Of a DNA stretch of 64,000 nt, positions 1,457-58,793 are shown in pieces (the stretch's first letter is position 1; every line of letters starts with the position of its first letter). Under the pieces are notes generated by a model, which searched no databases, was not told where the DNA came from, and was given only the letters and a program-made list of their open reading frames with translations. This stretch comes from Escherichia phage ECD7. Both the position numbers and the translations under genes were made by a program. Location: sequence record NC_041936.1, one strand, 5' to 3'.

Positions 1457-1948
1457 TCATACGGTCGCGCGTTTGCTTGTATTCGCGGATAGCACCGATT
1501 CGGCTAGGCATACCATCCAGTACGCTCTTAATCCTTCTAGGGTAGTGATTTTAGCAATGCTATTATGTAACCCCATCTTATCGGTCAACTGAATGTCGTA
1601 GGCTTCCATAAGCAGACCCAGACGTTCTAAAGTTAGGTCTTCTTCTTTTTCTTCCGATTCTGGAATCTTAGGTTCAATAGTAACTTCGGTAAAGAAACGA
1701 CGCTCACCCGACCAAAACCACACGCCGGAACAACCAATAGGGGATTCTTTTAACGTCATAGAGTCGTAACCACTGCCGATAATAGTAATTTCTCTAACAT
1801 CACCATCATCGTCAAGGTCTTCTACCCTAAACGGGCGACCAGCCAACAAGTCAACAATACATCTGTTAATAGACGACGAAAATTTAGTCAGTTCGGCTTT
1901 CGACGCTTCGCATTCAATCTTGTAAGTTTTACCAACTTCCCATTCCAT
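1457..1948 (-). CDS. hypothetical protein, KWExGKTY module family
   Basis: ORF track 1457..1957; MEWEVGKTYK start and ERRFFTEV motif. Confidence 0.5.
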   Translation of the reverse strand: MEWEVGKTYKIECEASKAELTKFSSSINRCIVDLLAGRPFRVEDLDDDGDVREITIIGSGYDSMTLKESPIGCSGVWFWSGERRFFTEVTIEPKIPESEEKEEDLTLERLGLLMEAYDIQLTDKMGLHNSIAKITTLEGLRAYWMVCLAESVLSANTSKRATV

Positions 1949-1958
1949 AATAATCACC

Positions 1959-2468
1959 TCAAATAATTTTCACTGGAATACTATTAACAATCTTGTATTG
2001 TACTTGATTGTCAGACCCCCGCCACGGCTTCTTCGTTGGCATATCTTTAATATAACGCCCATCGATGAACATGTCAACTGATTCTACAATTTTTCTTTGC
2101 TCATCATTCAATTGGTCAAGGGTATAACCGGACCATAGCCAAATATCTTTATTTGGCATCCATGATTTTACTTCATCGATGATCCGCTGTACACCCTTTA
2201 AATTGCGTTTATACAGTGGATCGCCACCTAAGAATGTTAGCCCCTGAATAAAATCAGGTCTAAGCAGATCCAGAATCAATCCCATTGTATCATCGGTGAA
2301 TGGTTCCCCGTTCTTAGGATTGAGTAGGCTAGCATTAAAGCAACCATCACATGCGTGTGAACATCCGGTAACGTAAAGGGAGACTCTCACTCCCTCACCG
2401 TTAACCATATCACAATCTTTAATATCGGCATAGCGTAGTTTGCCGTATGTATCAGAACTCATATTCAA
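1959..2468 (-). CDS. nrdG: anaerobic ribonucleotide reductase activating protein (radical SAM)
   Basis: 169 aa; Cys cluster GCSHACDGC of the radical-SAM activase type; immediately downstream of nrdD as in T4. Confidence 0.85.
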   Translation of the reverse strand: MNMSSDTYGKLRYADIKDCDMVNGEGVRVSLYVTGCSHACDGCFNASLLNPKNGEPFTDDTMGLILDLLRPDFIQGLTFLGGDPLYKRNLKGVQRIIDEVKSWMPNKDIWLWSGYTLDQLNDEQRKIVESVDMFIDGRYIKDMPTKKPWRGSDNQVQYKIVNSIPVKII

Positions 2469-8976: not shown

Positions 8977-9270
8977 TTAACCATTAATCTTGTTTTTGAC
9001 TACAAAGGATCGGAACTCATCAAAGCCACCGATATAATCACCATCATAGAAAATCTGCGGCATGGTGGCAATAACTTCTACCCCTGCGCGATCCTGAATG
9101 TCGGCAATGATAGAATCAATCTTTACAGGGCGACCGTTTTCGTCCACACCATCATTGACAGGAATATAGATGTAAGGGATCTTACGCGATTCACAAAGGC
9201 GCTTTGCATTCTGGCAATACTTACAGTTGTAACCTTCAAAACCAAAAATTTCTACCATGTTGTACCTCAA
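8977..9270 (-). CDS. nrdC: phage thioredoxin/glutaredoxin (NrdC-like)
   Basis: CKYCQNAKRL redox motif and TMPQIFYDGDYIGGFD closely parallel T4 NrdC. Confidence 0.8.
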   Translation of the reverse strand: MRYNMVEIFGFEGYNCKYCQNAKRLCESRKIPYIYIPVNDGVDENGRPVKIDSIIADIQDRAGVEVIATMPQIFYDGDYIGGFDEFRSFVVKNKING

Positions 9271-10079
9271 TCTACGTTAGTTACATAAACTTCTTGTGTA
9301 TCAGAAGACTTACCACCTGAACGATCTAGGCAATAGGTCTTATTCAACAGGACGCAGTTTAAATCATTCCGCTTGATAAAGTCAAGGAGATGATCATTTA
9401 CCTTTCCCTTATGATGTGTGACATTACTGATACCAAACCGAAAACCACGCTCCATAATAGATTCTACCCACTGATAGAATTTAATCTCTTCCTCGTCACT
9501 CCAGAACTTATTATATTCCGCAGAAGTGATAAGGTACGGCGGGTCCAAATAAACGAAATCACCTGGCAAGATCTCGATCTCGTCATAACGACCAGAAGTA
9601 AAACTGATTCGACCGTCTTTGTTTTCTTCCTTAAAATTCAGGACACGCTCTACCGCGTTTTCGTTAAAAGTCCGGCGACCAAAATTAGCATTAAATTCGC
9701 CCTTCCGGTTATGGCGGTTAATGTTGCTAAAACTGTGCTGAATCAGAACAAACAGAGATAGCGGATCTGGATTCTCATTATACTTCTTACGGAATGCCAT
9801 GTAAGCATCTTTATCATCACGAGACAAATCATTTTCGGCAATAATCCGCTTGATCGTAGAAACCGGATCAGGACACTCGTCAATCGCTTTGTACGCTTCA
9901 ATTAAGCGGTGATCATAGTCATTAGCCAGCACATCCCCTTCGACGTACAGAGACACGCTCAAGCCGCCACAAAAGGCATCAACAAAGCGGTTATAGTGCT
10001 TAGGGAAATACTTACTAACACCTGGCAATAGCTTTTCCTTATTGCCAGTATAGGGAATTAAACCTAATGCTTTCTTCAT
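9267..10079 (-). CDS. dam: DNA adenine methyltransferase (Dam family)
   Basis: 270 aa; motifs YTGNK, NRFVDAFCGGLSV, DFVYLDPPY and ISNV, collinear with T4 Dam. Confidence 0.9.
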   Translation of the reverse strand: MKKALGLIPYTGNKEKLLPGVSKYFPKHYNRFVDAFCGGLSVSLYVEGDVLANDYDHRLIEAYKAIDECPDPVSTIKRIIAENDLSRDDKDAYMAFRKKYNENPDPLSLFVLIQHSFSNINRHNRKGEFNANFGRRTFNENAVERVLNFKEENKDGRISFTSGRYDEIEILPGDFVYLDPPYLITSAEYNKFWSDEEEIKFYQWVESIMERGFRFGISNVTHHKGKVNDHLLDFIKRNDLNCVLLNKTYCLDRSGGKSSDTQEVYVTNVD

Positions 10080-19240: not shown

Positions 19241-19443
19241 TTACATTTAGGGCAATGCGGTTCTTTAATATAATACCCGTCTGTCTTTGGAACACTAACA
19301 GGAGCGGTTTTTATATTGTATTCAGTGAAACAACGAAAACAAGTTACGTTTTCTACAGACTGACGTTTCACCCAATCACCGGAATATAGATCATTTTTAT
19401 TTGTCATATTCAACCACCACAATGTTAATGTCTGGAGTAGCAA
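19213..19443 (-). CDS. hypothetical zinc-ribbon protein
   Basis: ORF track 76 aa; CFRC...CPKCKC. Confidence 0.4.
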   Translation of the reverse strand: MLLQTLTLWWLNMTNKNDLYSGDWVKRQSVENVTCFRCFTEYNIKTAPVSVPKTDGYYIKEPHCPKCKCRLYWSHL

Positions 19444-19852
19444 TATTAATGATCTCTTCTACACATTCCCACTCAAGGCCACCGATACCGCAACCGATTT
19501 TAGGAATATAGAAAGGCTGTATAGCACCCTCAAAAACATCATTGAGAGACTCAAATCCTTTCAGGATAGCACCATATTCAGCATTTGGACCCGGTCGGAA
19601 TTTGGTATAGAGATTCACCCCGCACCAGTTATAACCATTAACTTGATGCGTCCAGACACTAAACCCACCCAGCTTTTCGACCTTACCGCGAGAAGTTTGC
19701 TTGTCAATCTCTAACGCTTGCGGGAACTCTTTCGCGATCTTCGCAGCAATACCAGCGCCCATAGTATGAAAACAATTACAACCATGAATTAAATGACCGT
19801 TTCCTTGTTTAAACAGGGCGATGAGATCGCCCTTTACAGTATCAATAATCAT
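19397..19852 (-). CDS. macro-domain-like protein (putative ADP-ribose binding/processing)
   Basis: 151 aa; GDL...IHGCNCFHTMGAGIAAKIAKEFP...IPKIGCGIGGL parallels the macro-domain pattern; SD GAGGTTTATATT. Confidence 0.45.
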   Translation of the reverse strand: MIIDTVKGDLIALFKQGNGHLIHGCNCFHTMGAGIAAKIAKEFPQALEIDKQTSRGKVEKLGGFSVWTHQVNGYNWCGVNLYTKFRPGPNAEYGAILKGFESLNDVFEGAIQPFYIPKIGCGIGGLEWECVEEIINIATPDINIVVVEYDK

Positions 19853-21338: not shown

Positions 21339-21674
21339 TTATCCTTTCTTAAACAAATTGCGAATCCAGTATACAAACGGGATCTCTTTAAACTTGAATT
21401 TCTCTATAGTTAATTCTTTAGTAGCAAGATGAATACCATAAGCATCATGTGTCACGATATGCCATTTTCTATAGTCCAAATGTGAACAACCGTCTGGATC
21501 TAGGTTAATAAGAGTTTCTCGCTCACTAGGATTATTTTTCCACAATTTTGTAATAGGATCGCACATAATTCGACCTAGCGTACCATGAATAATCTCACAA
21601 CGGTAAAGTTTTCCAGCAGTGAGATAGGCGCACCCGTCATAGTCGGTATAAACAAACACTTCTTTAACACTCAT
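21339..21674 (-). CDS. hypothetical protein (small paralog family with 21732..21992 and 21974..22168)
   Basis: ORF 21339..21731 trimmed to MSVKEV behind AAGGAG; shared GY..D..G......L...C.HLD..W motif. Confidence 0.45.
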   Translation of the reverse strand: MSVKEVFVYTDYDGCAYLTAGKLYRCEIIHGTLGRIMCDPITKLWKNNPSERETLINLDPDGCSHLDYRKWHIVTHDAYGIHLATKELTIEKFKFKEIPFVYWIRNLFKKG

Positions 21675-21702
21675 TTTAATACTCCTTTGTTTCGATGGGG
21701 GT

Positions 21703-21731
21703 ATATTACTACCCCCGTTTTGTTGTGTCAA
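21703..21731 (-). promoter_or_regulatory. early promoter TTGACA-17-TAATAT with stem-loop GGGGGTA/TACCCCC around the -10
   Basis: Upstream of the 21674 start; SD AAGGAG. Confidence 0.5.
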
Positions 21732-21992
21732 CTACTTTTTCAAGATTTTTTTAATTGCGTTCCAAAGACCTTTATTCTCAGGTTGTTTTGGTTCTTCGAT
21801 CAGTGTCCATGTTCGACCGTCTAAGTGTGCACAATTTTTAAGACAAATAAAAATCTGGTGTCCATTATCATCACGGATATAACCACTATTCGCAAATCTT
21901 TCATGTGGTGTATATTCATACAGTGTATTTGGTGTAATATACTTGCGGTTACTATAAGGTGTCATTACATATTTCATGGTACTAACTCCCAT
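21732..21992 (-). CDS. hypothetical protein (paralog)
   Basis: ORF track 86 aa. Confidence 0.4.
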   Translation of the reverse strand: MGVSTMKYVMTPYSNRKYITPNTLYEYTPHERFANSGYIRDDNGHQIFICLKNCAHLDGRTWTLIEEPKQPENKGLWNAIKKILKK

Positions 21993-22168
21993 TTATCACC
22001 GCGAAGATGAGAACATCCACCATCAAGAAGGATCGTAATACGAAACCCCGCATCATCTTCAATATACCCGATTGTCGGTGGATTTTCGTCGTCTCGTGCC
22101 GGGGTAAAATCATACATCTTTCCCGGTGTGATATCATTGCCTTTATTGCTATTGGTATAAACTTGCAT
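21974..22168 (-). CDS. hypothetical protein (paralog)
   Basis: ORF track 64 aa. Confidence 0.4.
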   Translation of the reverse strand: MQVYTNSNKGNDITPGKMYDFTPARDDENPPTIGYIEDDAGFRITILLDGGCSHLRGDKWELVP

Positions 22169-22189: not shown

Positions 22190-22888
22190 CTAACCACGGG
22201 TATAGTGTTCCAGAACAACTGTCAGATGAATATATTCTAATAGATCTTTCCAAAAGTCAACATCTGGTTCTTCCGGCATACCGTTTTTCTTTGCCTCTTC
22301 ACGCGCGAGTTTAACACGCTCGTAGAGGTCTTTCAATTCTTCCCGCACATTATCAAATGTTCTTTCTCCTAACTTACACGCTAAAATCGAAGAACGTCGT
22401 GCGAGCGGGAATTGTAGATCACCTGTCTGGTAGATTTCAAGTAGCTGATAACCAACACGCAGAGCATGAGAAAGATCTTTCCAGTTACTGAAATACTTTT
22501 CCGATTTGGCTACCTGTTTCTTGAGATAACCAGACAAACCCCACATACCAACATGATAGAATTTATCGCGATGTGTTCGGATGTATTCCCATTCTCTGGA
22601 GGATTCGATCAACATGTTACTAGGCGCGTGCACCATGTCAATAGCGCCGATATCGCCTTTACATGCCAGATTGATAAACCGTTTTAGACTGAACATATTA
22701 ACGTCAATATCGTCTTTGGTGTTCTTGATCCCTTGACCGCTAGTGCTTTGATCATAGTGTTCTTTCATCGATCCTAAGATAATTTCTTTCGCAGTCGGAA
22801 CAAAGATACCACGATAATCTTTATCTGAATTTTCAGTATCAAGGCCGTATAAGTGAGATCCGAAGACCATTTTAACCATTGTATGCAT
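22190..22888 (-). CDS. nucleotidyltransferase-fold protein (pol-beta-like NTase superfamily), function unknown
   Basis: 232 aa; N-terminal VFGSHLYGLDTENSDKD matches the GS-x(9-13)-DxD NTase signature. Confidence 0.5.
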   Translation of the reverse strand: MHTMVKMVFGSHLYGLDTENSDKDYRGIFVPTAKEIILGSMKEHYDQSTSGQGIKNTKDDIDVNMFSLKRFINLACKGDIGAIDMVHAPSNMLIESSREWEYIRTHRDKFYHVGMWGLSGYLKKQVAKSEKYFSNWKDLSHALRVGYQLLEIYQTGDLQFPLARRSSILACKLGERTFDNVREELKDLYERVKLAREEAKKNGMPEEPDVDFWKDLLEYIHLTVVLEHYTRG

Positions 22889-22974: not shown

Positions 22975-23391
22975 TTAGAGAGATTCGGTAAAGGTACGCG
23001 CGATAACGTCACGCTGCTGGTCTGGAGTCAGACTATTGAAGCGCACTGCGTAACCAGAAACGCGAATTGTAAGCTGCGGGTACTTCTCAGGATGTTCAAC
23101 AGCGTCCAGCAACATTTCTCGTAACAATACGTTAACATTCAAATGCTGACCACCTTCGACAACCGGAGCACCATTATCTACAATGACAGGACGGAAGCTA
23201 GTTGTGTGCAGTGCCAGCGAATCGACGTCTTCTGCGGTGATCACATGGTCTTCTGCGAAAGTTTTACTAACAATTACTTTAGCGCCGATCAGTGCTTTCG
23301 GTTCGGATACCAGAATCATAGGCGCGAAGTGTCCACCAATAATAGTACCTTTATGCTCACCTTTCATGATTTGAATTGCTTTAAATTCCAT
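22975..23391 (-). CDS. grcA: autonomous glycyl radical cofactor (GrcA/YfiD-like)
   Basis: 138 aa; C-terminal [12 protein letters not shown]...[36 protein letters not shown] is close to E. coli GrcA; T4 is known to carry a YfiD homolog. Confidence 0.85.
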
Positions 23392-28959: not shown

Positions 28960-29202
28960 TCATAGATCACAGAGCCATCTGAAAGCACCACATAAAGCGA
29001 GCAGAATACTAGGTATAAACGAGACTAAAACAAGTTGGCAAAAATCATCTAAGGTAACACCGGAATAGCTACCTACTGTAACAACACCGATCATCAGACA
29101 CAGAAAGAAAACAAATGCAATCAGAAACAAAGTATTGCTAAACAGTTTAGTGATCATTAGACACCCCACGACGATCAATTTCAAAAACTTTTTTATCATC
29201 AA
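28960..29202 (-). CDS. small hydrophobic membrane protein
   Basis: ORF track 80 aa. Confidence 0.4.
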   Translation of the reverse strand: MMIKKFLKLIVVGCLMITKLFSNTLFLIAFVFFLCLMIGVVTVGSYSGVTLDDFCQLVLVSFIPSILLALCGAFRWLCDL

Positions 29203-29350
29203 CGAAGCATGTCACAACTGCCTCGTTGACTTCCGCAAATTGTTGTGTTACCCACTTAAGGTCAGAGCGAAACAATGTTCTATTAATAACAAATGTTTTA
29301 CCGCTCTTATCCTTACCCATAAATTTTGCTTTAACCATATCCAATTCCAT
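29147..29350 (-). CDS. hypothetical protein
   Basis: ORF track 67 aa. Confidence 0.4.
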   Translation of the reverse strand: MELDMVKAKFMGKDKSGKTFVINRTLFRSDLKWVTQQFAEVNEAVVTCFVDDKKVFEIDRRGVSNDH

Positions 29351-29359
29351 ATTATCACC

Positions 29360-29518
29360 TTATTTGCTAATCGCTAAACCCAATCCGAAGAGAGCACCCG
29401 ATGCTACAGTATACACGAAAGTTTCAAAGGCAGTAAAGATATCTAAGCCACCAGCTAACAGAGTTGCAGTAAACAGAGTACCAGCTACGAACATAAAAGT
29501 TTTACCGATAAATTTCAT
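29360..29518 (-). CDS. small hydrophobic protein (52 aa, not in ORF track)
   Basis: Hand-translated MKFIGKTFMFVAGTLFTATLLAGGLDIF...; preceded by AAGGAGAATCAAG and the promoter at 29550-29578. Confidence 0.35.
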   Translation of the reverse strand: MKFIGKTFMFVAGTLFTATLLAGGLDIFTAFETFVYTVASGALFGLGLAISK

Positions 29519-29549
29519 CTTGATTCTCCTTTCGTTTGTTTGTGGGGGT

Positions 29550-29578
29550 ATCTTACTACCCCCGTTTCATGTTGTCAA
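29550..29578 (-). promoter_or_regulatory. early promoter TTGACA-17-TAAGAT with stem-loop GGGGGTA/TACCCCC
   Basis: Between the 29585 stop and the small ORF start at 29518. Confidence 0.5.
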
Positions 29579-29584
29579 CTGTTT

Positions 29585-29959
29585 TTAAGAAAATTTTACT
29601 TCGTCTACAATGTCTTTCATGACATTGATTTCCATTCCGGTCAGAACACGTTGGAACATGTGCTGAACATACGCTTTCAGGTATTCATTTGACGGCTTGC
29701 TATCAAAAGTCTTTTTAGTGTAGTAGTCATCACCGAAAGCTACTGTAATTACATTTTCGTCGTCATTCCAAGCGATATAAGCAAATTTGCCGTTATCCCA
29801 GAAGCGAGCACTAATTGCTACTTTTGTTGAATCGAATCCTAATTCGCTGTGAGATTCAAGAACTACTTGCGTGCCAGTTTCTTTATGAATGTAGTAGCGG
29901 GATACTAAGTCAAAGTTACGGGTGTAGTGACATTCGAATTTATCTTTAAACATCATCAT
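29585..29959 (-). CDS. hypothetical protein
   Basis: ORF 29585..30028 trimmed to MMMF behind AGGAGAATCAAA; promoter near 29997-30025. Confidence 0.45.
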   Translation of the reverse strand: MMMFKDKFECHYTRNFDLVSRYYIHKETGTQVVLESHSELGFDSTKVAISARFWDNGKFAYIAWNDDENVITVAFGDDYYTKKTFDSKPSNEYLKAYVQHMFQRVLTGMEINVMKDIVDEVKFS

Positions 29960-29996
29960 TTTGATTCTCCTAAGTGTGTTTCGTTTCGATATGTGT

Positions 29997-30025
29997 ATTA
30001 TTCTATAGTCGTTTATGGTTGTCAA
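29997..30025 (-). promoter_or_regulatory. early promoter TTGACA-17-AATAAT
   Basis: Downstream of the terminator after the acb1-like gene; coordinates anchored to the 30069 stop. Confidence 0.45.
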
Positions 30026-30029
30026 CACC

Positions 30030-30062
30030 TAAAAACAAAAAACCCCGAAAAATTTTCGGGGT
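30030..30062 (-). terminator. rho-independent terminator after the acb1-like gene
   Basis: Hairpin ACCCCGAAAATTTTTCGGGGT + TTTTTGTTTTT on the minus strand. Confidence 0.6.
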
Positions 30063-30068
30063 ATAAAA

Positions 30069-30539
30069 TTACAGTTTGGTCGTCCACTCCAGGTCTAGAT
30101 CTTCGACATACTCATGAGATCGGACAATCTCTAAATCGAACTCTAGGTCAGTGCCAAATTTACGCGCACCAACATCATAAGAAAGCGTGATATGCGGTAC
30201 ATATTCAGGATAATCCCACGTCGCACCTAAAGCAGTGCCGATATCGTGTCTGAATTGCATGTAGTCGCTTTCAAATGCCAACACAAGCGCATTAGTACCG
30301 GATTGAGTTTCAAACACTTTCAGATGACACAGAGAGCCTAAAAACTTTTCACCCTCTTCCGGGATAAACGGAACATAGACACGAGAATATAAGATAGTGC
30401 TATGCAGTTTATCACGAGGAACAGCATTAGGCAGATCGTAGAACTCCTGCAATTTTTCAATGCGGTCTAGTGTATCCTCAGTGAATTTAACCGCAGCATA
30501 TGTACCTTTAACGGATTCTCGAAACGGGGTCATAATCAA
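30069..30539 (-). CDS. acb1: 2H-phosphoesterase, Acb1-like (anti-CBASS; T4 gene 57B position)
   Basis: 156 aa; two H-x-T/S-x motifs (HSTILY, HITLSY) of the 2H family; lies upstream of 57A and gene 1 as T4 57B does. Confidence 0.65.
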   Translation of the reverse strand: MIMTPFRESVKGTYAAVKFTEDTLDRIEKLQEFYDLPNAVPRDKLHSTILYSRVYVPFIPEEGEKFLGSLCHLKVFETQSGTNALVLAFESDYMQFRHDIGTALGATWDYPEYVPHITLSYDVGARKFGTDLEFDLEIVRSHEYVEDLDLEWTTKL

Positions 30540-30802
30540 GCCTCCGTGATCAGTTCTACTTCCTCTTTATCGTCTTCCGCTGCTTCGTCTTTAGGGAGAA
30601 GTGCTTTCACTTCTTCGACAATCGCATCAAGGGAAACAGTGCCGTTTTCGTCTGGCTGAATACCCAGAATGCGTACCAGTTCCATCAATACACGCTCACG
30701 ATCTTTCAGTTGGCCTTCTAAGAATGCGGCCTTTTCTTGAGTGTCAAACAGACGTACTTTCAGGACATTAATCATTTGTTCATGCTGATTGGACATATTC
30801 AC
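30536..30802 (-). CDS. 57A: gp57A-like protein (by position)
   Basis: 88 aa acidic coiled-coil ORF between the 57B-like gene and gene 1; assignment by synteny only. Confidence 0.45.
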   Translation of the reverse strand: MNMSNQHEQMINVLKVRLFDTQEKAAFLEGQLKDRERVLMELVRILGIQPDENGTVSLDAIVEEVKALLPKDEAAEDDKEEVELITEA

Positions 30803-30829
30803 ATCTCCTACTTGTTGATAACTTTTTTA

Positions 30830-31486
30830 TTAAATGTTCGCGAGAATCGCGCTTTCAAATTCTTCTAATGTACCATTATTTATGATAATGGTTTCACCGT
30901 CAATAGGCAAAATTCCTTTTTCGGTGGAGTGAGTCGATACAATACCAGTATCACGATGAATATGCAACACCTTAGCACCCATAGAACGCATGAGAGCAAT
31001 TTCAATAGGCTGACGCACATCAACCACTACAAAATACCCTTCTTCATTTTTGCGCTTCATAAACTCATTCACGAAGAGATTACACCAATAAAGCGGATTG
31101 ATCAAGTTAACCATTATATCAGTACCGAGAGTGGTTAACATGAGACGAATAGACCAGACGTTATTATGTTTTTCGCCAATCTCATTAACGACCTTGTAAA
31201 TCTCAGCCAGACGATCACAAGTAAAGGAACTACCGCCATACTTCGAATCTAACATAAGCAGACACTGAATAAACCACTTATGCGCGGTATAGGTATCAAT
31301 ACCTAGATCGGCTTCTCTGTCACGCCCTAACCCGTCAAAGTCAAGATAAGTCAGACCTAAGTCTGGTTGACATTCGCATAAGATTTCTTTGATCGGTGCT
31401 GCCAGTTGATAACTGTGTCCATCAATGATTAACGCGGCAGTGTCTTTTCCTACTCGCTTTTTACCACAAAGTGCAATCAATTTCAT
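30830..31486 (-). CDS. 1: deoxynucleoside monophosphate kinase
   Basis: 218 aa; P-loop CGKKRVGKDT; T4 gene 1 position. Confidence 0.8.
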   Translation of the reverse strand: MKLIALCGKKRVGKDTAALIIDGHSYQLAAPIKEILCECQPDLGLTYLDFDGLGRDREADLGIDTYTAHKWFIQCLLMLDSKYGGSSFTCDRLAEIYKVVNEIGEKHNNVWSIRLMLTTLGTDIMVNLINPLYWCNLFVNEFMKRKNEEGYFVVVDVRQPIEIALMRSMGAKVLHIHRDTGIVSTHSTEKGILPIDGETIIINNGTLEEFESAILANI

Positions 31487-31501
31487 TATATAAGCCTCTT
31501 A

Positions 31502-32092
31502 TTACTTTCTAAAAGCAGGGTGCATAGCTTTAATACCTTCCACCCGCTGACGATCCGCCGCCTGAATTGCTGGGCGAGGAACGATCAGTTGACCATCACG
31601 TTCAATGCTCATTGTTTTAAATGGAAGAATTGCAGTACACACCAGAGATTCATGCATATCATCAGTGTATGTTAACTCAAGTTCCCCCAATTGTGAACAC
31701 CAACAACCATAAAAGTTAAAGGTGCAAACAATGTTACGGCGTTCATTGTCCATCATGTGAACTTGAACGGCTTCCGGCATTGAATCCTTCCACGCTGTGG
31801 AGTTACCGTTATTGTAGTCTACTATAGAAAGCATCCATGTGTAAAGGTTTAGATAGCTTTCCAAATGCTCATCAACGATAAACCGGACTACCAACGGGTC
31901 AAACTCCACATGACTAGACGGATAATCAGCAACCGCCAAACCATATTGACCAGCAACTTGCTTAGTCGGTGGAATGGTTATAGCAGGAAGTGTAACACAT
32001 TGACAGTTTAAAGTAAAGCCTTTTGTTAGTTGACCATCTGGAATATTGATCTGCCAGTTGCTAGGGTTAGCATAGTTAAAGAGATTAGACAT
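31502..32092 (-). CDS. 3: tail completion / sheath stabiliser protein gp3 (by position)
   Basis: 196 aa ORF between gene 1 and gene 2; call is synteny-based. Confidence 0.55.
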   Translation of the reverse strand: MSNLFNYANPSNWQINIPDGQLTKGFTLNCQCVTLPAITIPPTKQVAGQYGLAVADYPSSHVEFDPLVVRFIVDEHLESYLNLYTWMLSIVDYNNGNSTAWKDSMPEAVQVHMMDNERRNIVCTFNFYGCWCSQLGELELTYTDDMHESLVCTAILPFKTMSIERDGQLIVPRPAIQAADRQRVEGIKAMHPAFRK

Positions 32093-32282
32093 TACTGATT
32101 CCTCAAATGAAAATATTTATTAACAATTGTCGCTTTGCGACGTGCCGGAGGCACTGACTACTTTTTAACCGAAACAAATTTTCTATTATTCTAAAGATCT
32201 TTCTTCGTTTTGGTTATGTTTTAACCAATAACTATATTTTTATACAGTAATAAATAAAACGGGTACTATACGAGGACTTCTT

Positions 32283-32537
32283 ATGACAGAAGACATTTTG
32301 TTAAAACTCTATGATCGTCTGGATAACGAATTGGCAACATTGCGGGGTGAAGTTCTCTATTTGTCTAAATGCAATACAGATCTGCTTAAGCAGATTGCAG
32401 AAAGGGATGATCAAATAAAATCCCTTTCAGGTGCATTACGTGATCGCGACAAGGCATTAGAGATTTTACAGCGTGTTACCAATAAGGAAGAATTAAAAGA
32501 CTTCTTACATGGTTATGCTCATGCCATCGATCTATAA
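32283..32537 (+). CDS. hypothetical coiled-coil protein, opposite strand to neighbours
   Basis: ORF track 84 aa; only plus-strand ORF in the early block, adjacent to the HE-like gene. Confidence 0.35.
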   Translation: MTEDILLKLYDRLDNELATLRGEVLYLSKCNTDLLKQIAERDDQIKSLSGALRDRDKALEILQRVTNKEELKDFLHGYAHAIDL

Positions 32538-32567
32538 TAAAAAAGCCCGTCAATGACGGGCTTAATT

Positions 32568-33602
32568 TTAATATGTATCAGCTAATTTAATTATGTTATC
32601 AAGTTCCGTGATTGGTAAAGTTTCTGTGTATCCATCTTTCAACATGGATTTATCAACAACGCCACAATGATAAGTTCTCTTTATTTCCTTTTCAAGTTCC
32701 CACGGAATCCAGCCATCAACACTTTGTTTGACGTAAACAAGTTTGTGAACAAACTTAGATTTCTGCATATGTTGTTTCATTCTGGTTTCCGGTAATTCAT
32801 TGGTTACACCAAACTTTATAAATTTATCATCTAACGTCTGGATATAAAAATATCCCATCTCAGATGGACGATAGCCAGAAGAACTACATTTCGGACACCC
32901 TTTAGCATTTCTGTTGAACGTACAATATCTTACAGAAAATTCTGCGTCATGTTTTGTACATTTAAGTTTTATCCATGAATTTGCAGTACCTATCCATTCA
33001 CCATCGACACCTATATATTCATACCCTAACTTTTTACATTTATCTTCTATTCTAGATAGTGCATCTTCCACGGGAACGACATATTCCGTCTTAAATTGTT
33101 CAGCCGCACATTTCTTACAACCACATGTACCATGATTTTTAAAATCAAAGAACTTTGTATTCTTCCAAATGTGGTCATGTTTCTTGCATCTAAGAATCAT
33201 CTTAGTAATTTGTGATTTCCAGCCACCAACAAATCCCAAAAATTCATAATCAAGATCTTTACATTTTTCTTCAATGAATTTGGTTGCTTCCTCTTCTGTC
33301 ATAACTCCCCTACATTGAGGGCAACCAACAATAACCTTTTTAGCATAGAAACTATTACTGGAAACATCATAGACAGTTCCATGCTTATTGCATTGGATAA
33401 CAGATCTAGTCAATTTTCCTTTCCATTCTCCAGAAAATCCTAAGAATGTATGGTCGACAAGTTTACATCTTTCAATAACTTTATCCGCAAATTCTCTAGG
33501 AGATTTTGTTACCTTGTTTACTCTGTATTCTATTTCTTCCGGTTGACGAAGATAATAAACGTGGGGATTGCTCCCCACGGAATTAATATTAATATTAAGC
33601 AT
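32568..33602 (-). CDS. putative homing-endonuclease-like protein: three Cys-containing repeats plus C-terminal T5orf172/GIY-YIG-like domain
   Basis: ORF 32568..33704 trimmed to the Met overlapping the gene 2 stop; three ~55-aa repeats (..C.KHG...GCP.C..); C-terminal GYFYIQTLDDKFIKFGVTNELPETR...ELEKEI. Confidence 0.45.
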   Translation of the reverse strand: MLNININSVGSNPHVYYLRQPEEIEYRVNKVTKSPREFADKVIERCKLVDHTFLGFSGEWKGKLTRSVIQCNKHGTVYDVSSNSFYAKKVIVGCPQCRGVMTEEEATKFIEEKCKDLDYEFLGFVGGWKSQITKMILRCKKHDHIWKNTKFFDFKNHGTCGCKKCAAEQFKTEYVVPVEDALSRIEDKCKKLGYEYIGVDGEWIGTANSWIKLKCTKHDAEFSVRYCTFNRNAKGCPKCSSSGYRPSEMGYFYIQTLDDKFIKFGVTNELPETRMKQHMQKSKFVHKLVYVKQSVDGWIPWELEKEIKRTYHCGVVDKSMLKDGYTETLPITELDNIIKLADTY

Positions 33603-34416
33603 CCTTCCACACCTTCCTTGCATCATAGTTTTTACCTTTAGAAACAAATTTATATGTGTTAAGGTAGATAATATTGCTCCAGTCTTTCGGGCTAATCTCA
33701 ACAAGTTTTGTTTTAATGTGTCCAGGTAGATATGCTTTGATCATGTGGTCACTACCACGCATACCTTTTACATCGCTCCATTTGATTTTTAAGCGTGTTT
33801 TATTGCTCAAGGTAGGAGTAGATGCATATTGCTTTAAAAGTGCCTCTAAAAACTGCTGACGGGCTTTAGGCGTTACATAGTGTAAGTTAAGACCCAGCAT
33901 TACAGTATTACCCGCCTTTGTCTTAGAATCACCCAGACAAATGATCAGCGGGAAAACATCCCAATATGGCAAAGTGTCTTTATACTTCGCATCATACATA
34001 AAGGTATAGATTCGCCCTACTTGCGGTTTTACAATCTGGTGTCCCTTTATTCCCGCTTTTATTGTTTTAGTAAACCACTCCTGTGATTTTTCTTTAGGGC
34101 GACTCTTTGATACAGCACGCATAGACGCACGAAAATCATTAATCATCATCATTGCGCGTTGCTGCTTATTGAGACCCTTTGCGCCTTTCCCTTTTAGTTT
34201 TTCAACTTCTATTGCTGTTTTAATTTCGCTGGCATAACGAGACATACTTTTAGTGAAAGTCGCATAGGCTATTCCCTTAGAATCTGCAAATGCTTTAGCT
34301 GTCATTCCTTTGGCTTTTGCTTTCGCAAATTCTACACCCAATTCGACCCACTGTTTAGACTTTCTTTTTTGGGGAGACGGCTTTTCGTCTTCTGTGATTA
34401 TTTCAAATACGCTCAT
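33595..34416 (-). CDS. 2: DNA end protector protein gp2
   Basis: 273 aa, T4 gp2 size; position between gp3 and gp4. Confidence 0.75.
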   Translation of the reverse strand: MSVFEIITEDEKPSPQKRKSKQWVELGVEFAKAKAKGMTAKAFADSKGIAYATFTKSMSRYASEIKTAIEVEKLKGKGAKGLNKQQRAMMMINDFRASMRAVSKSRPKEKSQEWFTKTIKAGIKGHQIVKPQVGRIYTFMYDAKYKDTLPYWDVFPLIICLGDSKTKAGNTVMLGLNLHYVTPKARQQFLEALLKQYASTPTLSNKTRLKIKWSDVKGMRGSDHMIKAYLPGHIKTKLVEISPKDWSNIIYLNTYKFVSKGKNYDARKVWKDA

Positions 34417-44271: not shown

Positions 44272-44529
44272 ATGGCACGTCGTAAATTTACAGATAATTG
44301 TGAAGCAATTCAGGTATCCCCTTGCGGTTGGGATGTGATCGCGAACGGTGAAAAGATCGGAGAGATCATCGATCATACTCATTCATCACTAGCCGATTAC
44401 ACCGATGAACTATTGGAGGGTATCAACTTCATGAATGACACTAAACGATTCAAGACTATCGACGAAGCTATCTATTTTGTGTATAATCCAACTTTCGGTA
44501 TGTGGGGTAATAGAAAATGGCACGCGTAA
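44272..44529 (+). CDS. hypothetical protein, first gene of the inserted early cassette
   Basis: 85 aa; MAR start shared by all three cassette genes; SD GGAGG; own early promoter. Confidence 0.5.
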   Translation: MARRKFTDNCEAIQVSPCGWDVIANGEKIGEIIDHTHSSLADYTDELLEGINFMNDTKRFKTIDEAIYFVYNPTFGMWGNRKWHA

Positions 44530-44849
44530 ATATTAAATTGCATTACACAATGAATAAAGCTAAGTTCCCAATGCAAAAGCATTACTATGGTCTACGTGCA
44601 CAAGATCCTAAACTCTATGGTACTCATTGGTTTTGTAAACATGATAACCAATGGCACACATACGAAGAAATGCACGAGATGATGAAACAGGGTATTGAAT
44701 TTAGTTATTCTAATTATGACCATCGTATAACTTGCATTCGAAAATTGAAACGATGGATTCGTAAGAATCCGCAATTTAAAAACTTTGTGTTCTTTATGTC
44801 TCATGTTTATTTGGGACATAGCGTTACCGTCACAGCAAAGGTTAAATAA
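44517..44849 (+). CDS. hypothetical protein, second cassette gene
   Basis: 110 aa; start overlaps upstream stop. Confidence 0.5.
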   Translation: MARVNIKLHYTMNKAKFPMQKHYYGLRAQDPKLYGTHWFCKHDNQWHTYEEMHEMMKQGIEFSYSNYDHRITCIRKLKRWIRKNPQFKNFVFFMSHVYLGHSVTVTAKVK

Positions 44850-45688
44850 TGGCACGACTTTCTAAACAAGAACAAAAATTACACGATCGGGTGATGGAGT
44901 TGATTAATTCAGATCGCCCATTGACATATGAAGAAAAAGAATTTTGCTATAATAACTATCATGGCGATGGTCTAGGCGGTTCAGGTGCATTCTTTACCCC
45001 AGAAGGGCTTGCATGGGATTTTACCATCGATGCACATTGCACAGGAAAAGTATTAGATCTTTGTGCTGGGATCGGTCGCTTATCTTTTTGTATGTTACAT
45101 CGTTGTAAGCCAGAAAAGATCGTATGCGTCGAACTCAATCCAGAATTTGCGCGGATTGGCAAGAGACTATTACCGGAGGCAGAATGGATCACCAGCGATG
45201 TATTCGAATTTGAGTCAAACGAAAAATTCGATGTGGTGATCAGCAATCCACCTTTCGGGAAAATCAATACAACCAACACAAAGGATGTATTTGAGTACAC
45301 TGGCGGCGAATTTGAATTTAAGGTTATGACATTAGGCCAGAAGTTTGCCGATGTTGGCTATTTTATTGTTCCTGTGGGTTCCGCTGGTTTTGCTTATTCC
45401 GGCAGACCTTATTATGACGGGACCATGAAGTCTAATAAATATCTAAAATGGAGCAAACAAACTGGTTTGGTGACTTATGCCGGATGTGGTATCGATACAT
45501 CAATCTATCGCGATGAATGGCACAGTACCAACGTTTTAACAGAAGTGGTTGAGGTTCGGTATTACGAGAAAGAAGCCGTAGAAGCGCCTAAATCACGCCC
45601 TAACGAACAAATAGAAGAAAGTAAGGAGATTACCTTACCGAAACAGGAAAGCGAGTCTGGGACGCTCTCAGATTTGTTTGACATTTAA
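44849..45688 (+). CDS. N6-adenine methyltransferase-like protein (gamma-class motif order, NPPF)
   Basis: 279 aa; FFTPEGLAWDF, AdoMet motif VLDLCAGIGRL, catalytic DVVISNPPFGK; no obvious target-recognition domain. Confidence 0.65.
   Translation: MARLSKQEQKLHDRVMELINSDRPLTYEEKEFCYNNYHGDGLGGSGAFFTPEGLAWDFTIDAHCTGKVLDLCAGIGRLSFCMLHRCKPEKIVCVELNPEFARIGKRLLPEAEWITSDVFEFESNEKFDVVISNPPFGKINTTNTKDVFEYTGGEFEFKVMTLGQKFADVGYFIVPVGSAGFAYSGRPYYDGTMKSNKYLKWSKQTGLVTYAGCGIDTSIYRDEWHSTNVLTEVVEVRYYEKEAVEAPKSRPNEQIEESKEITLPKQESESGTLSDLFDI

Positions 45689-55479: not shown

Positions 55480-58793
<3,314 letters not shown>

Follow-up and report, generated by a model that had tools for sequence, protein, structure and literature searches.

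The 57B locus of phage ECD7

We have analyzed a stretch of 64,000 nucleotides from Escherichia phage ECD7 (NC_041936.1), which we term the window. It contains a minus-strand ORF lying at the end of a group of genes that have counterparts in phage T4. The genes and signals at this position are as follows.

31502..32092, minus strand: gene 3, tail completion and sheath stabilizer (phrog_45, 2.6e-43; Phi1 and T4 annotations); synteny anchor
30830..31486, minus strand: gene 1, dNMP kinase (Pfam DNMK, 7.7e-68); synteny anchor
30536..30802, minus strand: gene 57A, tail fiber assembly chaperone (Pfam GP57, 27.3 bits; phrog_1002, 2.2e-26), immediately 5′ of acb1
30541..30545, minus strand: Shine-Dalgarno sequence GGAGG, inside the 3′ end of 57A
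30069..30533, minus strand: acb1 (gene 57B) coding sequence, 154 aa, with its stop codon at 30069..30071 (ORF, Pfam PF23474 and PDB 7T26)
30042..30062, minus strand: intrinsic-terminator-like hairpin of 9 pairs (5 G-C) with a T run behind it, 7 nt past the acb1 stop (consensus match)
30025..29997, minus strand: sigma-70-like site TTGACA-17-AATAAT, ahead of the next ORF (consensus match)

The gene order in the window, 3 > 1 > 57A > 57B, matches that of both T4, where it is also on the same strand, and Phi1. The Phi1 annotation names the ORF gene 57B and its neighbors 57A, 1 and 3. The order is also kept in annotated distant relatives, i.e. Acinetobacter, Vibrio, Pseudotevenvirus and Slopekvirus phages. 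An earlier note on this DNA had placed the ORF at the 57B position, and the gene order agrees. It had also described the ORF as lying upstream of 57A and gene 1. That is correct in plus-strand coordinates, but transcription of this minus-strand block reaches 57B last.

The earlier note gave the length of the protein as 156 aa. There is indeed a minus-strand ORF at 30069..30539 in the ORF listing of the window, and this encodes 156 aa if read from a TTG codon, but the real start, an ATG at 30533, gives 154 aa. The sequence immediately 5′ of acb1 is GGAGGCTTGATTATG. The GGAGG within it lies 7 nt ahead of the ATG, as against just 1 nt from the TTG at 30539, and we therefore place the beginning of acb1 at the ATG. 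The TTG was rejected as a start; it also shares nucleotides with the TGA that ends 57A (30538..30536). The Phi1 annotation begins acb1 at the same ATG, and this start is almost certainly the correct one. With its Shine-Dalgarno sequence placed within the end of 57A, and the 57A stop codon at 30536..30538, acb1 is predicted to be translationally coupled to 57A. 57A itself probably starts, like its Phi1 counterpart, at the ATG at 30796.

Assignment to the Acb1 family

The 154 aa protein matches the Pfam Acb1 profile (PF23474) with a score of 174.4 bits against a cutoff of 27 (E = 1.5e-51). Residues 9–152 align with positions 1–143 of the 144 in the profile. The sole match among PDB sequences is Acb1 of Erwinia phage FBB1 (7T26 and 7T27), with E = 1.8e-43 and ∼53% identity. 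The earlier note had suggested alignment with T4 Acb1 as a check. BLASTP comparison with T4 57B (NP_049750.1) gives 47% identity from end to end, with E = 3e-47. A search of NCBIfam with the 154 aa protein gave no matching model. An AlphaFold2 model calculated from the single sequence had a mean pLDDT of 37.4 and a pTM of 0.36, too low for the model to be of use. [quoted passage not shown]

The earlier note proposed that the ORF encodes an Acb1-like 2H phosphoesterase, and considered that closer homology to LigT-type RNA ligases would speak against this. The Pfam and PDB matches, the retention of the functional residues (described below) and the synteny all bear out the Acb1 assignment. Closer homology to the LigT type was not found, because both of the relevant models score below their cutoffs and are fragmentary. 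The 2_5_RNA_ligase2 model (PF13563) reaches 19.4 bits against a cutoff of 27 (E = 0.0011), and LigT_PEase (PF02834) reaches 14.1 bits against a cutoff of 23.3 (E = 0.057). Both matches are confined to residues ∼70–126, the part of the protein surrounding the second HxT motif.

Catalytic motifs and ligand-contacting residues

Three segments of the protein correspond to functional elements of characterized Acb1 enzymes.

30396..30404, minus strand: first catalytic motif H44-S45-T46 (HSTILY; codons CAT AGC ACT), aligning with H44/T46 of T4 Acb1 and invariant in an eight-member alignment
30186..30194, minus strand: second catalytic motif H114-I115-T116 (HITLSY; codons CAT ATC ACG), aligning with H113/T115 of T4 Acb1 and invariant in the same alignment
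30072..30104, minus strand: C-terminal lid segment EDLDLEWTTKL, approximately residues 144–154, with E144 and W150, aligned to T4 and FBB1 Acb1

The two H-x-T/S motifs that the earlier note had pointed out (HSTILY and HITLSY) are present, at residues 44 and 114. The protein has five histidines, exactly two of which are in such motifs, and ∼0.68 motifs would be expected in it by chance. Two or more are found in 10 of the 75 ORFs of at least 100 aa in the window, and in one of the 30 ORFs of 120–200 aa. If a hydrophobic residue is required after each Hx[TS], the acb1 ORF is alone among the window ORFs in having two. The pair of motifs by itself is weak evidence that is only suggestive of an Acb1. 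It is the full-length profile match that is decisive for the identity of the protein, as judged by sequence comparison.

The important residues of T4 Acb1 are known (PMC9117128). The catalytic tetrad comprises H44, T46, H113 and T115, the bases stack on Y12, W74, F107 and W147, and E141 contacts adenine N6. Residues 145–152 form a lid that closes over the ligand (PMC9117128), and catalysis requires this lid (10.1101/2025.08.21.671373). In a three-way alignment Y12, H44 and T46 are the same in the window protein, and H113, T115, E141 and W147 are kept as H114, T116, E144 and W150. Two positions are substituted, W74 by F74 and F107 by Y108, both aromatic for aromatic. The crystallized FBB1 Acb1 likewise has F74 and Y108. 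The set of ligand-contacting residues is therefore identical to that of a crystallized, active enzyme.

We also aligned eight members of the Acb1 family, from Escherichia, Erwinia, Acinetobacter, Aeromonas, Vibrio and Klebsiella phages. There are 22 invariant columns, which include the tetrad. Compared with T4 the window protein has an insertion of two residues at approximately 131–132, in a loop whose length is variable across the family in this alignment.

Some homologs depart from this architecture. In phage UPEC03 and Klebsiella phage 05F (each at 1459..2082 of the compared stretch), representing Pseudotevenvirus and Slopekvirus, the Acb1 homologs have 207 aa, with a C-terminal extension of ∼55 aa and a lysine in place of the lid tryptophan. 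This is a variant architecture, for which different behavior is possible. In Pseudomonas phage psageK9 (52..1854 of the compared stretch), a 600 aa protein encoded beside the terminase gene holds a segment that matches Acb1 residues 38–123 with 37.6% identity. This suggests a 2H domain fused into a larger protein.

Conservation among related phages

The region 29000..33000 of the window is 98.4% identical to phage Cognac, and 97.6% identical to both Phi1 and JSE. A total of 57 DNA records match this region, all with at least 95% identity, and the relatives inspected belong to Krischvirus, i.e. the RB49-like T4-type coliphages. The window protein is 100% identical to gp57B of RB49, Phi1 and JSE (Q7Y455; AAQ15381.1, ABR24636.1 and ACL78078.1). 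There are eight nucleotide differences between the acb1 genes of the window and Phi1, all of which fall in third codon positions. The frame of acb1 is intact, and relative to Phi1 it is changing only synonymously. In a tblastn search with the window protein 1,474 phage records were matched, 54 of them with at least 99% identity.

The gene is already known and named, as the catalogued acb1/57B of the RB49-type phages, since the exact sequence has been deposited for RB49, Phi1 and JSE, and is named Acb1 in UniRef. There it has the name ‘Anti-CBASS protein Acb1’ with the RB49 protein Q7Y455 (Q7Y455_BPRB4) as representative, and the exact protein sequence is present on 316 contigs. Yet in GenBank and RefSeq the gene is still labeled ‘RNA ligase’ or ‘hypothetical protein’ for many of these phages. 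These labels should give way to Acb1. Beyond correct annotation the importance of the gene is small, as structure, mechanism and phenotype are already established for the Acb1 family (PMC9117128). In the literature library that was searched, no paper contains both ‘Acb1’ and ‘RB49’, and neither biochemical nor genetic tests of the RB49-type protein came to light. The lysate screen of PMC9117128 included the RB49-like phage vB_EcoM-G2494, the Acb1 of which is identical to the window protein at 153 of 154 residues.

In Cognac (MZ504877; 1071..1534 of the compared stretch, corresponding to 30069..30533 of the window) the deletion of a single nucleotide in a run of five T splits acb1, and the annotation has two fragments in its place, of 82 and 64 aa. 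Either Acb1 has been lost naturally in this phage, or the homopolymer was misread in sequencing. If the deletion is real, it follows that acb1 is dispensable under laboratory conditions.

Proposed activity and alternative functions

The 57B protein of T4 was uncharacterized prior to the study of PMC9117128. There, T4 Acb1 was found to cleave cyclic di- and trinucleotides containing adenosine in a metal-independent manner, and to rescue phage from CBASS. T4 Acb1 and all nine further homologs assayed cleaved both 3′3′-cGAMP and cAAA, and FBB1 Acb1 was crystallized with 3′3′-cGAMP, which it hydrolyses (PMC9117128).

The window protein resembles T4 Acb1 in its identity of 47%, its length (154 against 152 aa), the HxT/HxT tetrad, the adenine-reading glutamate, the lid tryptophan and its genomic position. 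It differs in having F74 and Y108 where T4 has W74 and F107, and in the two-residue loop insertion. The resemblance to FBB1 Acb1 (7T26 as the apo form, 7T27 with 3′3′-cGAMP) extends over residues 10–153, and includes F74 and Y108. The differences are the host genus, and the same loop insertion that again sets the window protein apart. Cellular 2H phosphoesterases of the LigT/2′-5′ RNA ligase type (PF02834 and PF13563) would share the two HxT/S motifs and the 2H fold, but they are without the lid and aromatic cage of Acb1, and act on RNA ends rather than cyclic oligonucleotides.

We consider that the ORF at 30069..30533 is the Krischvirus (RB49-type) ortholog of T4 57B/Acb1, a single-domain metal-independent 2H phosphodiesterase that cleaves the messengers of CBASS, with a probability of roughly 90%. 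The cyclic nucleotides by which CBASS raises the alarm are most likely destroyed by the product of the gene. We infer the enzymatic activity, the substrate range and the anti-CBASS phenotype of the RB49-type ortholog by analogy with the enzymes that have been assayed.

By that analogy, the window Acb1 should bind cyclic di- and trinucleotides with one or more adenosines, for example 3′3′-cGAMP, cUA, cAAA and cAAG. The substrate would lie in a U-shaped pocket, with its bases stacked on Y12, F74, Y108 and W150, and with E144 reading adenine N6. The C-terminal lid would then shut over the bound ligand. H44/T46 and H114/T116 are expected to catalyze attack by the adenosine 2′-OH on the 3′-5′ bond, so cleaving 3′ of adenosine. 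The resulting 2′,3′-cyclic phosphate intermediate would be hydrolyzed to give a linear product with a 3′-phosphate. Because the second messenger would be removed, the CBASS effectors should remain silent, and the phage would escape abortive infection. RB49-type phages are thus predicted to be resistant to CBASS systems signaling by adenosine-containing cyclic di- and trinucleotides.

The same activity should also carry a liability. Panoptes uses decoy nucleotides such as 2′3′-c-di-AMP to sense promiscuous phosphodiesterases. T4 Acb1 degrades 2′3′-c-di-AMP, and so activates Panoptes (10.1101/2025.08.21.671373). The same would therefore be expected of the window Acb1, and RB49-type phages should be sensitive to decoy-based systems of this kind.

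The exact specificity cannot be read from homology, because close 2H phosphodiesterases differ in substrate range (10.1101/2025.08.21.671373). The window protein might be an enzyme of the Acb1 fold that acts mainly on something other than a CBASS signal, or that has a shifted range. It could, for example, chiefly remove cA3 made by type III CRISPR or other cyclases, or have become narrower in range so as to avoid decoys such as 2′3′-c-di-AMP. Related 2H phosphodiesterases in the structural group of T4 Acb1 differ in their preferences, which are set by the core (10.1101/2025.08.21.671373), and the window protein has two base-stacking positions unlike those of T4, plus the insertion at ∼131–132. 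But F74 and Y108 are also present in FBB1 Acb1, an enzyme that hydrolyses 3′3′-cGAMP, and the insertion sits in a loop of family-wide variable length. Moreover, cleavage of both 3′3′-cGAMP and cAAA by nine out of nine additional homologs (PMC9117128) argues against such a shift, which we regard as improbable. Function as a LigT-type 2′-5′ RNA ligase or cyclic phosphodiesterase acting on RNA ends, in tRNA repair for example, with no role in the evasion of defense, is more improbable still. The protein falls in phrog_755, labeled ‘RNA ligase’, a name that several RefSeq records share, and the weak matches to 2_5_RNA_ligase2 and LigT_PEase reflect membership of the 2H superfamily. However, those matches are sub-threshold fragments set against a full-length score of 174 bits for Acb1, and the PDB sequence matches are to Acb1 only. 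The base-stacking residues and the lid, which are specific to the binding of cyclic oligonucleotides, are kept. The ‘RNA ligase’ label rests on resemblance within the 2H superfamily alone, T4 57B having been uncharacterized when PMC9117128 appeared.

There is also the question of whether acb1 still serves the phage. Cognac, the closest relative at the DNA level, has the gene split into fragments of 64 and 82 aa, which would be consistent with a decaying or dispensable remnant that makes no further contribution to fitness. Against this, the reading frame in the window is intact with every functional residue in place, a protein at least 99% identical is encoded in 54 phage records and the differences from Phi1 are all synonymous. 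The Cognac deletion, lying within a homopolymer, may also be an artifact of sequencing. We regard a remnant as the least probable of these alternatives, with a chance close to negligible. The preferred reading is an active Acb1 directed against CBASS messengers.

Other candidate counter-defense genes

The earlier note regarded the ORF as part of a scattered counter-defense set, with four other members in the window.

9267..10079: Dam (PF02086; T4 name in Phi1, dam)
19397..19852, minus strand: macro-domain protein (PF01661; 2,734 phage records; T4 name in Phi1, tk.4)
22190..22888: nucleotidyltransferase of the RlaP type (PF10127; 1,618 phage records; T4 name in Phi1, nrdC.11)
44849..45688, plus strand: second methyltransferase, 279 aa, N6-type (MTS, Eco57I and N6_Mtase matches; 288 phage records; no T4 name in Phi1)

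All four of the named genes are present. The description of the set as unusually rich is not supported, as Dam, tk.4 and nrdC.11 carry T4 names in Phi1. In view of these names and the wide record counts, the set is standard Straboviridae content rather than anything unusual. Only the second methyltransferase is more narrowly distributed. The set is spread across 35 kb, its members lying 7–20 kb from acb1 among unrelated genes, and the genes surrounding them are mostly T4-named or ORFs of unassigned function. There is no positional or tested functional link of Dam, the methyltransferase, the macro protein or the nucleotidyltransferase to Acb1.

The second methyltransferase is part of an insertion (44517..45688, plus strand) between the baseplate genes 8 and 9. 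It is preceded by an ORF of 110 aa (44517..44849) that has no Pfam match. Phages that have this methyltransferase include Krischvirus, Klebsiella, Enterobacter and Aeromonas phages, and some jumbo phages. For the tk.4-like macro protein there is a match to the macro domain within the NCBIfam model of the DarG antitoxin (NF048014), with E = 1.5e-14 and 54 bits, short of the full-length cutoff. The protein may strip ADP-ribose from DNA, thereby countering toxins of the DarT type.

The two genes of the window whose T4 homologs have the most firmly established roles in anti-defense were absent from the list of the earlier note. These are given here together with the ORFs that lie between acb1 and dmd.

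33595..34416: gene 2 (gp2, DNA end protector)
29585..29959, minus strand: ORF of 124 aa (phrog_15253, unknown function; Pfam Gp30.7, E = 0.007, sub-threshold)
within 29360..29959, minus strand: hydrophobic ORF of 52 aa, between acb1 and dmd
29147..29350, minus strand: dmd, discriminator of mRNA degradation (Pfam PF17587, 7.6e-16; Phi1 annotation), ∼0.7 kb 3′ of acb1

T4 Dmd and gp2 have established anti-defense roles, and T4 Dmd inhibits the RnlA and LsoA toxins. Dmd is the nearest gene to acb1 whose T4 homolog has such an established role, and is a more informative neighbor than the genes of the proposed set. Two minus-strand ORFs of unassigned function (29360..29959) separate acb1 from dmd, and a PDB sequence search with the longer of these (29585..29959) gave only matches at the level of chance. 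This is where the window departs from T4, in which the 3′ neighbor of acb1 is ipI. The latter is an anti-restriction gene (PMC9117128). The two ORFs at 29360..29959 are candidates for inclusion in screens for new anti-defense genes. One can envisage acb1, these ORFs and dmd as an anti-defense island in which the middle genes counter further systems, combined with a Krischvirus Acb1 of shifted range, for which F74, Y108 and the two-residue loop insertion would be the candidate determinants, and which might for instance degrade CBASS signals but spare 2′3′-c-di-AMP and so not trigger Panoptes. We consider this a long shot.

In the vs region we identified no Acb2 (T4 vs.4). The ORFs tested there, among them three small ones at 21339..22168, are without Pfam match, and short divergent proteins could escape this search.

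Other features of the window

Three adjacent small minus-strand ORFs of 111, 86 and 64 aa (21339..22168) are found between regB and the nucleotidyltransferase gene. They have no Pfam match. They share the motif G-C-S/A-H-L-x-x-x-x-W, and look like tandem paralogs. The vs.6-like protein (22975..23391, minus strand) ends in a glycyl-radical domain (PF01228, E = 1.5e-16), in which RVSGYAVRF is the motif. In this the protein is similar to spare glycyl-radical cofactors like GrcA. The window also has nrdD and nrdG, the genes for anaerobic ribonucleotide reductase.

Between genes 3 and 2, in the region 32283..33704, there is an ORF of 343–378 aa with two CapR homology domains that overlaps the 3′ end of gene 2. 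It is annotated as ‘endonuclease’ in Phi1, and T4 has nothing at this position. Next to it are a small plus-strand ORF (32283..32537) and, at 32543..32563, a terminator-like hairpin that is bidirectional. The region is probably a mobile endonuclease cassette.

The large terminase gp17 (55974..58790, plus strand) has 938 aa, compared to 607 aa in Phi1. It contains an insertion of 331 aa at approximately 56466..57458 (residues 165–495) that includes a LAGLIDADG_3 domain. The insertion splits the Walker A motif right after SRQLGK, and the flanking sequences are 98% identical to Phi1. These features suggest an intein that carries a homing endonuclease.
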